DNA from: Escherichia phage UPWr_E1
Strand: one strand, 5' to 3'
Length of the DNA stretch: 64,000 nt
Sequence record: PP418985.1
Shown: positions 18,520 to 29,244 of the stretch, piece after piece
How the letters are laid out: every line of letters begins with the position of its first letter
Position numbering within the stretch: position 1 is the stretch's first letter
Made by a program: the position numbers and the translations under genes
The notes under the pieces: model-generated
What the model was told of the DNA's origin: nothing
Databases searched by the model: none
The model's input: the letters and a program-made list of their open reading frames with translations, nothing else

Positions 18520-19026
18520 ATGTTGTCACAGACTTACATGCAGATCGCCTATCTGATCGCAAAGAACTCTAAATGTGTTTCGTGGAAGGTAGGCGCACTA
18601 ATTGAAAAAGACGGGCGAATCATTTCTACTGGATTTAATGGCACTCCAGCAGGGCAAGTAAATTGTAGCTGTCATGCACATAAAAGCGGTTGGCTGGATG
18701 ATGAAGGTAAAATGATCCCAGAAAAACGACCAGAACATAGTGCATGGTCACAGAAAAACGAGATCCACGCTGAATTAAATGCTATTTTGTTTGCTGCCCG
18801 TAATGGTGTATCGATTGAAGGCGCTAGTATGTGGTGTACTGCTTCACCTTGTCCAGATTGCGCTAAAGCAATTGCAAACAGTGGTATTAAACATCTATAC
18901 TATTGCGATACATACGACCGAAATGGTGGGCGTGATTGGGCTGATATTTTGGATAAAGCCGACATTACGGTTACGCGTATTCCAAAAGCATTATTGACTG
19001 ATTTGAAGGGTATTGATAATGACTGA
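18520..19026 (+). CDS. cd: dCMP deaminase
   Basis: 168 aa; zinc motifs HAELNAI and CTASPCPDCAKAI; RBS gtgagga. Confidence 0.8.
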   Translation: MLSQTYMQIAYLIAKNSKCVSWKVGALIEKDGRIISTGFNGTPAGQVNCSCHAHKSGWLDDEGKMIPEKRPEHSAWSQKNEIHAELNAILFAARNGVSIEGASMWCTASPCPDCAKAIANSGIKHLYYCDTYDRNGGRDWADILDKADITVTRIPKALLTDLKGIDND

Positions 19027-19333
19027 ACAAATTGATAATATCGCACTTCGTGAAGCACTAAAGAAAATGTTTGCTGTAGGTACTCACTCTTTACAGTTTA
19101 CTAAGAAAGATGGTACTGTCCGTGACATGATCGCTACGCGAGATCCGGCGCTAATGCCTTTCGAAACATACGAAAAATGGTTAGTGCCGAATGCTGAAAA
19201 ACCGCGTAAAGAATCAGAAACATCGTTGCCAGTATATGAAATTGCAGTTGAAGGTTTTCGTAGCTTTGGTCTTGATAACCTGATTCATGTAGACGGATTG
19301 ACTCCAGCGCAGATCGTCGAAATTTATAAATAA
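19019..19333 (+). CDS. Hypothetical protein, 104 aa
   Basis: ATG inside track ORF 19013; overlaps cd stop (ATGACTGA). Confidence 0.45.
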   Translation: MTEQIDNIALREALKKMFAVGTHSLQFTKKDGTVRDMIATRDPALMPFETYEKWLVPNAEKPRKESETSLPVYEIAVEGFRSFGLDNLIHVDGLTPAQIVEIYK

Positions 19334-19373
19334 TCCATTATTTTATTGTATTGATTTGAAGAGGTAAGAAATT

Positions 19374-19697
19374 ATGACCGTTAAGACTCCTAAAGCACTT
19401 GGTGACTATGTGATCATTGAAGCTAAAGCAGAAAGCGCAGGGACCGAAGTAAAAAGCTCTATGGGGATCATTATTGAGCAAAAGCGCACTATGGGCGAGA
19501 TTCCTTTAGTCGGTAAGATTATTGATATCGGTGATAACGTTGATAAAGAATTGCTGGGCAAGACTGTATTGCTTCCTCATGGGAAACTTAATAAAGTTCC
19601 TCATCCAGACGTTATTAACGGCGTTAAGAAGGAAGAAGAGATCGACCTGAAATGGACTGTAACGCACAAACAGAATATTGTGGTAGTTTACGGTTAA
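19374..19697 (+). CDS. 31: gp31 head-assembly co-chaperonin (GroES-like)
   Basis: 107 aa; GroES-like; T4 gene 31 position next to cd. Confidence 0.7.
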   Translation: MTVKTPKALGDYVIIEAKAESAGTEVKSSMGIIIEQKRTMGEIPLVGKIIDIGDNVDKELLGKTVLLPHGKLNKVPHPDVINGVKKEEEIDLKWTVTHKQNIVVVYG

Positions 19698-19708
19698 TGA
19701 TTTTAAAC

Positions 19709-19735
19709 GGCGGGAAATAATCCCGCCTATATTTT
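19709..19735 (+). terminator. Rho-independent terminator
   Basis: ggcggga-aataa-tcccgcc followed by tatatttt. Confidence 0.6.
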
Positions 19736-19779
19736 GGCTATATGATTTTGTAAGTTATTGATTATTAAGGAATTTTATT

Positions 19780-19944
19780 ATGAAAACTATGAATGTAAAC
19801 ATCCACGAAATCCATACCGAAGTATTCACCGAAGAAGACCAGTTTGGTGTATGGGTAAATCCTCATTCGATTACTATCGATATTCCTAATGACGATTATG
19901 ATCCGTTCTCTCTGATTAGCGAGATTAGTTTCAATGACTTCTGA
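19780..19944 (+). CDS. Hypothetical small protein, 54 aa
   Basis: ATG to TGA, overlaps next ORF start; below track cutoff. Confidence 0.3.
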   Translation: MKTMNVNIHEIHTEVFTEEDQFGVWVNPHSITIDIPNDDYDPFSLISEISFNDF

Positions 19945-20413
19945 AATTGATATCTATGCGGGTGGACCTTATCCATCGGGTGAATTGAGTAATTTCAATA
20001 AAAGACCATTCCGTCTATTTGGTTGCGATATTAACAGCACAGAAGGATTTTTACAGGGGCTAAGATTTAAGAACCCTCAGAGACAAAGAGAAATCTTTTT
20101 GATGCACGGTGGCAAAGCAAAAAGAACCGGAAGAACTGAAAAGATTGAGAATCACATGTTATATTTTCAGGGTCGCCAGATTCATCGAATGAGTGAGCAT
20201 TATTACAGACTGGTACATCTGGCATTTGTTACGATGGCACGGAATAACCCAGAATTTTGTAAAGCATTACTCGCTACAGGAAATAAGAAATTACGTCATA
20301 GTATAGGTGGAACTGATCCGTTAAAGACCATATTGACCGAATCGGAATTTTGTAGTATCCTCAATGATATTCGTGAACGTTTAACAAAACGAGGTGAAAA
20401 TGTCAATTCTTAA
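19934..20413 (+). CDS. NADAR (YbiA-like) domain protein, putative ADP-ribose processing enzyme
   Basis: 159 aa; IYAGGPYPSGELSNFNKRPF..STEGFLQGLRF matches NADAR core pattern; motif-level call only. Confidence 0.45.
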   Translation: MTSEIDIYAGGPYPSGELSNFNKRPFRLFGCDINSTEGFLQGLRFKNPQRQREIFLMHGGKAKRTGRTEKIENHMLYFQGRQIHRMSEHYYRLVHLAFVTMARNNPEFCKALLATGNKKLRHSIGGTDPLKTILTESEFCSILNDIRERLTKRGENVNS

Positions 20414-21896
20414 TATCATTAATCAGCTTGCAGCAACAGACAAAACATCTCTGAAAGAAAAGATTCTGAAAGAATCTGCAAGCAATGAAACACTGAAAGA
20501 ATGCTTTTATCTGGCATATTGCAAACAGGTTACGTTTGGCGTAAAGAAATACGATAAACCATCGCGTTATTCGTCTGTATTGTCTTTATCTGGTGCATTA
20601 CAGGTCTTTAAAAATAAACTTGCCACGCGTCAAGTAACTGGTAATGCAGCATTACAGCTAGTTACCGATACTCTGACTTGCTTGTCAGAAGATGATGCTA
20701 AAGTTGCAATGATGGTCCTGAATCGCGATCTAGAATGCGGTTGTTCCGCTACCACTGCAAACAAGGTATGGAAGAAACTGATCCCCCAGCAACCATGCCA
20801 CCTTGCATCGTCATATTCTGATAAGGCTATTGCTAATATCAAATATCCGGCATATGCACAACTTAAAAGTGATGGCGCTCGTGGTATGGCTGATATTGAC
20901 GGGGAAACATTAGCAATCTATACCCGTTCAGGTAATACCTATCAGGGACTTGATGATTTGTTTGCTGTTTTAGAGCGTCTACGAGGCCGTGGAATTGTTC
21001 TAGATGGCGAATTGGTATATATGCCTACCCTTTCGCAAACACCAGCGCAGAACTTCGTTGAAAGCGTTTATGATGGTACTCTGTCATGGATATTTGAAGA
21101 AGAGGAAATGCCATTAACGCCAGTAGCGGAAGCAGTAAAAGAATCCGTTGTTGCAGATCGTCAGACCGGAAATGGTATCCTCAACAAATCACTGAAAGGA
21201 ACTATTCCAAAAGAAGAAGCCCAATGTATTGTTTACACTGTCTGGGATGTTATCGACCGTGATGTGTATTACGGAAACGAGAAAGCAACGAAGCAATATA
21301 AAGATCGATTCGAAGAACTAAAACAGATTGTTGAAGAACTTAACGATCCTCGTGTGCAGATAATCGAAAATACTGTAGTTAACAATATCGATGAAGCTCG
21401 CGAAGTATATCATCGCTATGTAAACATGGGCTTAGAAGGTATTATCCTTAAAAATTTACATGGTGTATTTGAAGATCGTCGCAGTAAAGATCAGGTTAAA
21501 TTTAAAGAAGTGATTGACTTCGACGCGGAAATTGTTGATGTATATCCGCATAGTAAAGATCCTAATAAGGTAGGCGGTTTTACTGTCCGTAGCGCGTGCG
21601 GACGAATGATGACTAACACCGGATCGGGATTGACAGACACCACAACCGAAAAAGGTGATGATGGTATCGAACGTGTGATTCCGTTAGATCGTCGAAATGA
21701 ACTTGACCGAGAAATGTTATGGGCTGACCGTCATAACCTGATTGGAAAAGTCATCGAGATGACATGCAACGGGTATATCCGCAGCAAATCACGTAAAGAA
21801 GATGAACCGGAGTTCTCTTTATTTCTCCCGATCATCAAACGTATTCGCTACGACAAGACCACTGCAAATACAGTAAAAGAGGTATTCGATGTGTGA
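20400..21896 (+). CDS. 30: ATP-dependent DNA ligase
   Basis: 498 aa; adenylation motif KSDGAR, LDGELVY, EGIILKN; strong similarity to T4 gp30. Confidence 0.9.
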   Translation: MSILNIINQLAATDKTSLKEKILKESASNETLKECFYLAYCKQVTFGVKKYDKPSRYSSVLSLSGALQVFKNKLATRQVTGNAALQLVTDTLTCLSEDDAKVAMMVLNRDLECGCSATTANKVWKKLIPQQPCHLASSYSDKAIANIKYPAYAQLKSDGARGMADIDGETLAIYTRSGNTYQGLDDLFAVLERLRGRGIVLDGELVYMPTLSQTPAQNFVESVYDGTLSWIFEEEEMPLTPVAEAVKESVVADRQTGNGILNKSLKGTIPKEEAQCIVYTVWDVIDRDVYYGNEKATKQYKDRFEELKQIVEELNDPRVQIIENTVVNNIDEAREVYHRYVNMGLEGIILKNLHGVFEDRRSKDQVKFKEVIDFDAEIVDVYPHSKDPNKVGGFTVRSACGRMMTNTGSGLTDTTTEKGDDGIERVIPLDRRNELDREMLWADRHNLIGKVIEMTCNGYIRSKSRKEDEPEFSLFLPIIKRIRYDKTTANTVKEVFDV

Positions 21897-22365
21897 TAAT
21901 GAAGGGGCGAAAGCCCCTAAACCTAAAAAATTGTCAAAGAAAGAGCAACGCCAGATCCTGAAAATGAAATACGGTGGACGTTGTGCCTATTGTGGCGAGG
22001 AACTAGGGGATCGCTGGCACGCAGACCACATCAAACCAGTATTACGACGCTCAAAAGTAGTCTATGATGAAAATGGACGAATTGCCCGTAATGATGATGG
22101 ATCGTGGAAGTATAAGGTTGTAGGAATGCATAAACCGGAGCATGATATACTTGATAACATGAATCCGGCGTGTGTGCAATGCAATCTTTATAAAAGCTGT
22201 ATGGGCTTAGAATACTGGCGTAAGTGTATACGCGAGAACTTCCAGAAGTACATTCAGCGCAATATGGGATTGCGAGCGGCTAAACGCTTTGGCTTACTGT
22301 CAATCCACGATCAGCCAGTAGAATTTTATTTCGAAAAGTACGAGCGCGAGCATCAAGAAAAATAA
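21889..22365 (+). CDS. HNH endonuclease
   Basis: 158 aa; CAYCG..HADHIKP..N..CVQCN HNH/zinc-finger motif; overlaps ligase stop. Confidence 0.6.
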   Translation: MCDNEGAKAPKPKKLSKKEQRQILKMKYGGRCAYCGEELGDRWHADHIKPVLRRSKVVYDENGRIARNDDGSWKYKVVGMHKPEHDILDNMNPACVQCNLYKSCMGLEYWRKCIRENFQKYIQRNMGLRAAKRFGLLSIHDQPVEFYFEKYEREHQEK

Positions 22366-22378
22366 TTCAAAAAAGTTG

Positions 22379-22407
22379 TTGACAGGGGATCACCGATCCC
22401 CTATACT
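22379..22407 (+). promoter_or_regulatory. PeSL-type early promoter (hairpin spacer)
   Basis: TTGACA, 17-nt palindromic spacer ggggatcaccgatcccc, TATACT. Confidence 0.55.
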
Positions 22408-27430: not shown

Positions 27431-27682
27431 ATGGCTAACATCGAAACCGCAAAGAAAATCGCTAAAGACCTGAACGTTAAAGGCTTCCGTAAACTGAAAT
27501 TACAGCGTGTACGCTACACCATCGGCAAACAGTGCTCTTTCATGAGCGAAGAAGTTGCTAACAGCCTCATCGATAATCTGATTGCGGCTGGCTGGGAAGT
27601 TGCGGATCTGAAAACTTGCCGCGAACTGGCTAACAAAGGTCTTTTAGATTCTGTTACTATCAAACCAATGGGGGCAGCGTGA
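27431..27682 (+). CDS. Hypothetical protein, 83 aa
   Basis: Starts MANIE, sharing its first 16 nt with ORF 29565. Confidence 0.5.
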   Translation: MANIETAKKIAKDLNVKGFRKLKLQRVRYTIGKQCSFMSEEVANSLIDNLIAAGWEVADLKTCRELANKGLLDSVTIKPMGAA

Positions 27683-28395
27683 AACAAAAATTAATATTCT
27701 GCAACTTTGACGGATCGGGGATAATGGGGCTAGAATGGGCTAAAGCAGGTCATAAGGTGATCTGCTTTAATGCTGACGATGGCGACCACGGTACATACAA
27801 AAAATATAATACCCGATTTGAACATCCAAACATTACCTATGTAAACACATGGATTGATTTGAACTGGCTGGAAAGAGCAATGGACCTTGAATGGGGGAAA
27901 CCGGATATTATATTTGCATTCCCACCGTGCACCAATTTAGCTGTTAGTGGCGCTGCACACTTTGAACGAAAGAAACGAGAGCAAGGACCATTAATTCAAG
28001 TTCATGATGTAAGGGCAGCTAAAATAACCGCTTATTTGGGCGAATGGTTAGGAGTTCCCTACATGATAGAGAATCCTGTAAGCGTTATCTCTAGCATGTG
28101 GCGTAAGCCTGATTATATGTTCCATCCGTGGGAATATGGCGGTTATTTGCCGGAAGATGATAAACATCCTACGTTTCCTGAGTATATTGCCGCCCGTGAT
28201 ATGTACCCGAAAAAGACTTGCTTATGGACCGGACAAGGCTTTATAATGCCAGAAAAGAAACCGTTGCAGATTAATAAAGGGTACAGTAAACAGCATTCTA
28301 AGCTAGGCGGGAAAGGAACCAGAACAAAGACTATCAGGTCACTTACACCGCGAGGATTCGCAAAGGCAGTATTTGAAGCCAATAAGGATCTATGA
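27679..28395 (+). CDS. DNA (cytosine-5)-methyltransferase-like protein
   Basis: 238 aa; motif I-like FDGSGIMGLEWAKAGHKVICFNADD, motif IV-like FPPCTNLAVSG, motif VI-like ENP; short for a complete C5-MTase. Confidence 0.4.
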   Translation: MKQKLIFCNFDGSGIMGLEWAKAGHKVICFNADDGDHGTYKKYNTRFEHPNITYVNTWIDLNWLERAMDLEWGKPDIIFAFPPCTNLAVSGAAHFERKKREQGPLIQVHDVRAAKITAYLGEWLGVPYMIENPVSVISSMWRKPDYMFHPWEYGGYLPEDDKHPTFPEYIAARDMYPKKTCLWTGQGFIMPEKKPLQINKGYSKQHSKLGGKGTRTKTIRSLTPRGFAKAVFEANKDL

Positions 28396-28724
28396 TGAGA
28401 TTGTTTAAGTATTCGCTAACGTCAAATTACGATAAACAAGGTCATTGCATCCGTTGCCCTGATTGCCATAGCCATAACATCGAAAGCAGGATCACCGATC
28501 ATATTGATGGACTTTGGTCGCCAGCAAGCGAGATAGAATACTATTGCGCTGATTGCGGAATTGTAGTAGCATATTGGGCATACGGATCATATGATCCCTA
28601 CTTCCAGATGGGAGAGCGTTCAATCCCTGCGCTTATCTGGAGAATTAAGAACAATATCCGCCATTCATGGGATGAGTTCTTAAAAGATATTGATTTACGT
28701 GATGATCCATTCAGGAGACTATAA
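28392..28724 (+). CDS. Zinc-ribbon protein, 110 aa
   Basis: CIRCPDCHSH ... CADCG cysteine pairs. Confidence 0.45.
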   Translation: MMRLFKYSLTSNYDKQGHCIRCPDCHSHNIESRITDHIDGLWSPASEIEYYCADCGIVVAYWAYGSYDPYFQMGERSIPALIWRIKNNIRHSWDEFLKDIDLRDDPFRRL

Positions 28725-28725
28725 C

Positions 28726-29244
28726 ATGAACCGTTTAACACCTAAACGCCGTTACTATACCAATACTAAAAACTTTGTCATCTCTGTTTATGAGGCGTGG
28801 TTAGAAGATGGCTATATCAACATGAACCCAGATTATCAGCGTCCTTTAGTATGGGACACCGAAAACAAACGTATGTTTATCGAAAACCTGATTAATGATT
28901 TTCCGGTTGGTGCTATCGCAATGGCTAAGATTGATGATGGCTCTCGCTATGAGATCGAAATCGTGGACGGTAAACAGCGTTTAAACGCAATATTCTCCTT
29001 TATGAAGGATGAGTTTAGCATTGCTGGTAATGATGATTCTATGCTGTATTACAGTGATTTTACGCCAGCAGAAAAGCGACGTTTCCGAAATCTCGGACTA
29101 CCCGCGATCATGATGGAAGAGAGCACAAGAGAAGACCGATTAGAGTATTTCTACAAAACAAACTTTTTCGGTGTTCCTCAATCGGAAGAACATCGCCAGC
29201 ATGTGATTGCCCTATTGCAAGATGAGCAATTAAAAAATAACTAA
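28726..29244 (+). CDS. DUF262 / ParB-like nuclease-domain protein
   Basis: 172 aa from ATG after RBS caggaga; NPDYQRPLVW and VDGKQRLNAI match the DUF262 signature (compare DGQQR). Confidence 0.45.
   Translation: MNRLTPKRRYYTNTKNFVISVYEAWLEDGYINMNPDYQRPLVWDTENKRMFIENLINDFPVGAIAMAKIDDGSRYEIEIVDGKQRLNAIFSFMKDEFSIAGNDDSMLYYSDFTPAEKRRFRNLGLPAIMMEESTREDRLEYFYKTNFFGVPQSEEHRQHVIALLQDEQLKNN

Follow-up and report, generated by a model that had tools for sequence, protein, structure and literature searches.

The Krischvirus counterpart of T4 gene 30.3 as a probable AdfN-type NADAR against DarTG1, with a rare arginine at the phosphate-binding position

What is the role of the 159-aa ORF that directly precedes the DNA ligase gene in a T4-like phage genome with two ADP-ribosyltransferase (ART) genes further downstream? 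A sequence-only reading of the window (the whole stretch of DNA analysed here, 64 kb) had claimed that this ORF carries the core pattern of a NADAR (YbiA-like) enzyme, that it adjoins DNA ligase and lies about 9 kb from alt and an ART paralogue, that some phage NADARs are reported to reverse the DNA ADP-ribosylation by DarT, and that the phage hence appears to encode both a writer and a candidate eraser of ADP-ribose. We find all three parts confirmed, the assignment to NADAR, the idea of a role against DarT and the neighbourhood of alt and the ART paralogue; the biology is already published, and none of it is new. The source genome is a Krischvirus (RB49-like, Straboviridae). The 3.4 kb surrounding the ORF are 95-99% identical to 59 phage records, and the closely related Shigella phage JK32 has this ORF with an identical start, annotated as 'hypothetical protein; Bacteriophage protein GP30.3'. 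The features of the locus are given in Table 1.

Table 1. Features of the locus and of the two ART genes, in positions of the 64-kb window
Feature	Position	Strand	Basis or remark
Terminator-like GC hairpin with T-run after gene 31	19709..19727	+	Consensus scan only
Predicted 54-aa ORF (ORF54), upstream	19780..19944	+	Stop overlaps gp30.3 start by 11 nt
Predicted gp30.3/AdfN orthologue, 159-aa core-only phage NADAR	19934..20413	+	ATG start; PF08010, T4 alignment, AF2, Foldseek, dN/dS
E37, predicted catalytic glutamate (T4 E36; E. coli C7 NADAR E88), codon GAA	20042..20044	+	T4 BLASTP alignment
R44, at the phosphate-binding lysine position (T4 K43; E. coli C7 NADAR K95), codon AGA	20063..20065	+	T4 and YbiA 'QKF' alignments
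H122, last-strand histidine marking phage (gp30.3-type) NADARs, codon CAT	20297..20299	+	Family alignment column
C-terminal alpha-helix, residues 136-157	20339..20404	+	DSSP on AF2 model
ATP-dependent DNA ligase (gene 30), ATG at 20400	20400..21896	+	PF01068, E=4e-22; JK32 annotation
HNH endonuclease ORF (PF01844)	21889..22365	+	Overlaps ligase stop codon
Alt-type ADP-ribosyltransferase, 683 aa	29844..31895	+	PF03496, E=2.4e-9; JK32 'Alt RNA polymerase ADP-ribosylase'
Second ADP-ribosyltransferase (ART paralogue), 274 aa	31974..32798	+	PF03496, E=4.6e-16; JK32 'ADP-ribosyltransferase'

The ORF is intact, and its translation contains the motif IYAGGPYPSGELSNFNKRPFRLFGCDINSTEGFLQGLRFK verbatim, as it had been quoted. 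The protein matches the Pfam family Phage_30_3 (PF08010) with E=6.5e-38 and 130.1 bits, against a cut-off of 36, over profile positions 2-138 of 138. It also matches PHROG 652 with E=2.5e-45; as sequence scores, both matches are far beyond chance. The BLASTP alignment with T4 gp30.3 (38% identity, E=1e-28, residues 3-150 versus 2-152) extends to the last residue of the T4 protein. No NCBIfam model matches the 159-aa protein, the Alt homologue or the ART paralogue. The protein belongs to PF08010 by its score, its full-length homology, the conserved Glu and His, and the C-terminal helix, and on this sequence evidence T4 gene 30.3 (adfN) has its Krischvirus orthologue in this gene.

Homologues of gp30.3 occur in 1,509 phage records, most of which belong to T4-like phages of Escherichia, Klebsiella, Shigella, Aeromonas, Acinetobacter and Vibrio. 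The extent of the family is seen by exhaustive HMM search, with 1,694 cluster representatives; the word-indexed protein search gave only 12 homologues. Some family members have other architectures. Four proteins of about 290 aa (P0021, P0031, P0055 and P0094) are tandem gp30.3-type proteins, with a partial N-terminal domain that keeps the Glu and the Lys and a full C-terminal domain in which the Glu is lost (N, Q or A). This tandem architecture probably accounts for the length of the PHROG 652 profile, which has 296 positions. Among 121 family proteins the gp30.3-type domain is fused to DUF6939 (n=9), ASCH (n=3), an NT5C 5'-nucleotidase (n=2) or a histidine phosphatase (n=1).

The gene was compared with that of a 69%-identical relative, taken from a syntenic contig with the order rnlA-pseT-cd-31-ORF54-30.3-ligase. 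The dN/dS ratio is 0.11 (pN 0.18, pS 0.69), comparable to those of its neighbours in the same comparison (dCMP deaminase 0.08, ligase 0.13). Hence, the 159-aa gene is under purifying selection and is, by this measure, an intact and selected gene.

The hairpin after gene 31 forms the upstream boundary of a block made of ORF54, 30.3, ligase and the HNH gene. ORF54 is annotated as a hypothetical protein in JK32 and has no Pfam family match; in a divergent relative (L003, 4847..5011) it is kept at 48% amino acid identity with a dN/dS of 0.15. It is probably a real small protein, and the short overlap of its stop with the start of gp30.3 suggests that the two are translationally coupled. The ligase gene follows directly, its start overlapping the gp30.3 stop by 14 nt, and the product shares 41% identity with T4 ligase (tblastn); the claim that the gene adjoins DNA ligase is thus borne out. 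The promoter scan near the gp30.3 gene gave 8 sites, where 9.8 are expected from shuffled sequence, and nothing above expectation. Just 3' of the HNH gene, where the next run of small ORFs begins, there is a sigma-70-like promoter (22379..22407, + strand; TTGACA, 17-nt spacer, TATACT) with 11 of 12 consensus matches. In related Krischvirus genomes the match to 19000..22400 is broken into 2-3 pieces and interrupted by an additional 350-1000 bases, and thus this interval gains and loses mobile genes.

As in T4, gp30.3 is located between genes 31 and 30. Of the eleven T4 genes that run from rIII to the ligase, 30.3 and the ligase alone have counterparts here: compared with the T4 locus (L002, 230..4058), no homologue of rIII, 30.9-30.4, 30.2 or 30.1 was found anywhere in the 64-kb window. 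The absence of 30.2 and 30.1 brings the NADAR gene directly against the ligase; the gp30.3 gene has thus been kept while all its surroundings were replaced.

PF08010 is a separate Pfam model for the gp30.3 branch of the NADARs, and the link of this branch to the rest of the superfamily was followed at three levels. The Pfam NADAR profile (PF08719) gives the 159-aa protein 16.7 bits (E=0.0089), under the gathering cut-off of 35.1, but it is matched independently by 33 of the 121 gp30.3-family members (E<=0.01; best E=1.1e-6). With the gp30.3-family profile, E. coli YbiA is the sole relevant sequence in the PDB, matched weakly (E=0.054 and E=0.01). The AlphaFold2 model of the protein (pLDDT 93.6, pTM 0.88) finds, with Foldseek, exactly the three NADARs that are solved in the PDB: YbiA (2b3w, E=1.4e-6, TM 0.66), the ADP-ribose complex of the P. 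nicotianae NADAR (8bau, E=7.6e-4, TM 0.63) and the DarG1-type NADAR of G. lovleyi (8bat, E=1.1e-2, TM 0.60). Every match beyond these is noise, with TM<=0.21. The link is thus weak from the 159-aa sequence alone and firm at the level of the family and of the modelled fold: the protein belongs to the NADAR superfamily by its predicted fold, not by the Pfam NADAR threshold. The NADAR (YbiA-like) assignment made from the motif therefore holds, since the only structures matching the predicted fold are NADARs and other family members reach the Pfam profile on their own; a NADAR profile match, named as a check in the sequence-only reading, stays under the cut-off for the single protein and is obtained for 33 of the 121 family members. 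Single-sequence matches to the PDB, such as that to a D-alanine carrier-protein ligase (E=3.7e-4, over a helical stretch), were rejected as spurious, because the fold and profile searches point elsewhere.

The predicted active site is that of a phage NADAR, with one exception. E37 occupies a column with Glu in 161 of 166 family rows and aligns with the Glu of YbiA 'TSEHY'. H122 lies within 'KKLRHSIGG', in a column that is His in 157 of 161 rows; a His at this place of the last strand sets the phage NADARs apart from DarG1, which has Asp there, and from YbiA, which has Glu (PMC11125620; PMC11543638). The C-terminal helix is intact in the model. In RB69, which is DarTG1-sensitive, the allele is inactivated by a frameshift that removes this helix (PMC11825919).

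The exception is R44. Lys occupies its column in 158 rows and Arg in 6. In the 158 complete domains of the family the catalytic triad reads E-K-H in 146 and E-R-H in 4. Three of these four make up a single clade, namely the window protein, its 98% cluster and the 69% relative, and the fourth is from an unrelated lineage. Two more Arg cases are degenerate second domains, in which the catalytic Glu is lost too. The Krischvirus clade is fixed for this substitution, which is hardly seen elsewhere among some 150 representatives of the family, and the AGA codon is kept in the 69%-identical relative, where synonymous sites are near saturation. Experiments on two relatives bear on this position. In T4 AdfN both E36A and K43A are impaired, the latter being partly active (PMC11825919), and in the E. 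coli C7 NADAR the K95R mutant keeps guanine-ADPr hydrolysis in vitro and loses the DarT1 rescue in vivo (Schuller et al., PMC11543638). R44 keeps a basic side chain and is expected still to bind the phosphate, but it may lower or retune the activity. With Arg in place of Lys, and given the in vivo loss in C7 K95R, the in vivo potency of the Krischvirus allele cannot be read from homology.

The function of the T4 orthologue was established in 2024-2025. Johannesman et al. (Nat Commun 2025, PMC11825919) gave T4 gp30.3 the name AdfN (anti-DarT factor NADAR) and showed that it frees DarT1-modified DNA of its ADP-ribose. T4 needs it to grow on DarTG1 hosts, and it also rescues RB69, the phage with the frameshifted allele (PMC11825919). 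The T4 NADAR hydrolyses guanosine-ADPr, not thymidine-ADPr (Schuller et al., PMC11125620; PMC12945103), and it is not listed among the enzymes reversing cytidine-ADPr (PMC12945103). DarTG1 resistance was shown for the T4 and T2 alleles (PMC11825919), and also for the NADARs of Bas32 and Bas60. Hence, the proposal that phage NADARs reverse the DNA ADP-ribosylation by DarT had already been demonstrated by experiment for gp30.3/AdfN of T4 (PMC11825919; PMC11125620). The phages assayed on DarTG1 are Bas35-47, T2, T4, T6 and RB69, with no Krischvirus among them, and a literature search pairing Krischvirus with DarTG found no paper.

We suggest that the Krischvirus 159-aa gene is probably an AdfN orthologue which repairs DarT1-modified phage DNA on DarTG1 hosts. 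The homology, the fold, the conservation of E37 and H122, the intact C-terminal helix, the purifying selection and the synteny come from the present analysis, while for substrate, chemistry and the role against DarTG1 the proposal draws on the T4 orthologue and other NADARs. In the proposed mechanism the core-only NADAR would be made early in infection from the ORF54-30.3-ligase block. The enzyme would then bind ADP-ribose linked to guanine N2 in the phage DNA, with R44 contacting the diphosphate and with E37 and H122 placed at the distal ribose. Hydrolysis of the N-glycosidic bond would release the ADP-ribose, thus undoing the modification made by the host DarT1 and allowing the phage replication to continue on DarTG1 hosts. 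The protein would be, in effect, an orphan antitoxin carried by the phage. Besides the arginine and the C7 K95R and T4 K43A mutants, two points count against this proposal. The identity to T4 AdfN is just 38% along the aligned sequence, and T4 AdfN appears to need a T-even-specific context: it does not neutralise DarT1 in uninfected cells and fully works only in T-even infections (PMC11825919), and its T4 neighbours 30.2, 30.1 and others are absent from the window.

The rare arginine leads to the main rival explanation, in which the protein is a genuine gp30.3-type NADAR, retuned or weakened by the K-to-R change, whose real substrate is not DarT1-modified DNA. RNA guanosine-ADPr, the product of another DarT or of a pierisin-like toxin, or a soluble ADP-ribose derivative could then be the substrate. 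We consider this unlikely. The E-R-H site is rare (4 of 158) yet clade-fixed at pS 0.69, which suggests that it was selected rather than accidental, and the C7 K95R mutant fails in vivo, as described above. RNA guanosine-ADPr is also removed by NADARs, including the T4 enzyme (PMC11833690), and, as Iyer et al. argued, the targets of phage NADARs are for the most part soluble derivatives of ADPr (PMC9503650). However, the remaining catalytic and structural features all agree with T4 AdfN, the same K95R mutant keeps its guanine-ADPr activity in vitro (PMC11543638), and DarTG1 is countered by all phage NADARs tested, including the distant ones of Bas32 and Bas60. The narrower proposal is that Arg at the phosphate site retunes AdfN adaptively, as a natural specificity variant, instead of being neutral or mildly deleterious; this seems to us still harder to credit. 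If it were so, the retuning may have been directed to another DarT1 variant, to RNA guanosine-ADPr or to another ADP-ribose conjugate that is met by these cytosine-DNA T4-like phages.

Another explanation couples the protein to the phage's own ARTs, namely that it reverses or limits the ADP-ribosylation made by Alt and the ART paralogue, the phage thus having a self-contained pair of writer and eraser. The two genes are where they had been placed: both match PF03496, and from the end of the ORF to alt there are 9.4 kb. Alt-type ARTs modify proteins. The NADAR and ART genes belong to the same early region, and Iyer et al. 2022 noted earlier that T4-like phages express their NADAR genes early, together with the ARTs (PMC9503650). 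However, many unrelated ORFs lie in the interval; the activity characterised for NADARs concerns ADP-ribose linked to a base (guanine or, in some of them, cytidine) and not phosphate-linked ends (PMC11543638; PMC12945103; PMC11833690); and DarTG1 alone explains the phenotype of the T4 adfN deletion (PMC11825919). A functional coupling of the NADAR with Alt/ART was rejected on these three grounds, namely the distance, the specificity for base-linked ADP-ribose and the T4 genetics, and we regard this explanation as very improbable. Of the suggestion that a writer and a candidate eraser are both encoded, the genes themselves stand, since the ART genes and the NADAR are real. Their proximity is a conserved early-region layout of the T4 type, noted before by Iyer et al. 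2022 (PMC9503650). It is no evidence that the enzyme reverses the action of the phage's own ARTs, because in nucleic acid the substrate of the phage NADAR is ADP-ribose linked to guanine. The least credible role, and one with hardly any chance of being right, is that of a YbiA/RibX-like housekeeping N-glycosidase on riboflavin-pathway intermediates: YbiA is the top structural match and the sole PDB match by sequence profile, but the last strand carries the phage-type His, not the YbiA-type Glu, the gene is part of the early region of a phage, and for its T4 orthologue a role against host defence has been demonstrated (PMC11825919).

Two further ORFs lie between the NADAR gene and alt. Just upstream of alt (28690..29244, + strand) a 184-aa protein has a GmrSD_N/DUF262 domain only (PF03235, E=5e-20), being half of a type IV restriction enzyme without the nuclease half. 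At 27679..28395 (+ strand) there is a 238-aa ORF that contains 'FAFPPCTNLAVSG' and has no Pfam or NCBIfam match; this stretch may resemble the catalytic motif of a DNA methyltransferase. AdfA (T4 gene 61.2) is presumably outside the window, since the T4 gene order would place gene 61 there.

Most annotated Krischvirus records sampled label the product just 'hypothetical protein' or GP30.3, and it is now annotatable as an AdfN-type anti-DarTG1 factor. The AdfN-type reading predicts that RB49-like therapeutic phages would resist E. coli carrying DarTG1. Beyond the annotation and the E-R-H site no new principle arises, and the rare K-to-R substitution is the only point of interest: the natural E-R-H site offers a ready-made test of the in vivo weight of the lysine, which K95R and K43A left ambiguous.

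Finally, the protein may be compared with the known NADAR systems. With YbiA (2b3w) and the P. nicotianae NADAR (8bau) it shares the fold, at TM 0.66 and 0.63, and the common motif 'SNF ... S-E-x3-Q-x2-K/R-F'. However, the identity is about 17-18%, and the last-strand residue of both proteins is Glu, where the Krischvirus protein has His. The context is different as well, YbiA belonging to a LexA-controlled operon and to riboflavin metabolism and the P. nicotianae protein to a eukaryote.

DarG1 is the DarT1-associated (BC4488-type) NADAR antitoxin, known for example from E. coli C7 and Geobacter lovleyi (8bat; Schuller et al., Mol Cell 2023). The Krischvirus protein resembles it in the NADAR fold (TM 0.60), the catalytic Glu, the basic residue at the phosphate site and the same predicted hydrolysis of guanine-N2-ADP-ribose. 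Unlike DarG1, it is encoded by an orphan gene with no adjoining DarT toxin gene: its neighbours are the 54-aa ORF, gp31, the DNA ligase and the HNH endonuclease, and the sole ARTs found are Alt-type (PF03496). It also has His122 in place of Asp and is without the N-terminal nucleic-acid-binding extension (cf. PMC12945103), and its T4 counterpart is unable to act as an antitoxin in uninfected cells. With no adjacent DarT, His instead of Asp and the extension missing, the protein is not a DarG1.

T4 AdfN and the Krischvirus protein correspond in sequence and in genomic location. The two differ in the Arg found at the place of T4 K43 and in the surroundings of the gene, which in Krischvirus abuts the ligase, with 30.2 and 30.1 absent, in a genome outside Tevenvirinae. 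They agree in the full-length homology, the core-only NADAR architecture of 152-159 aa, the same Glu and last-strand His, the intact C-terminal helix and the position between genes 31 and 30 of a T4-like early region.
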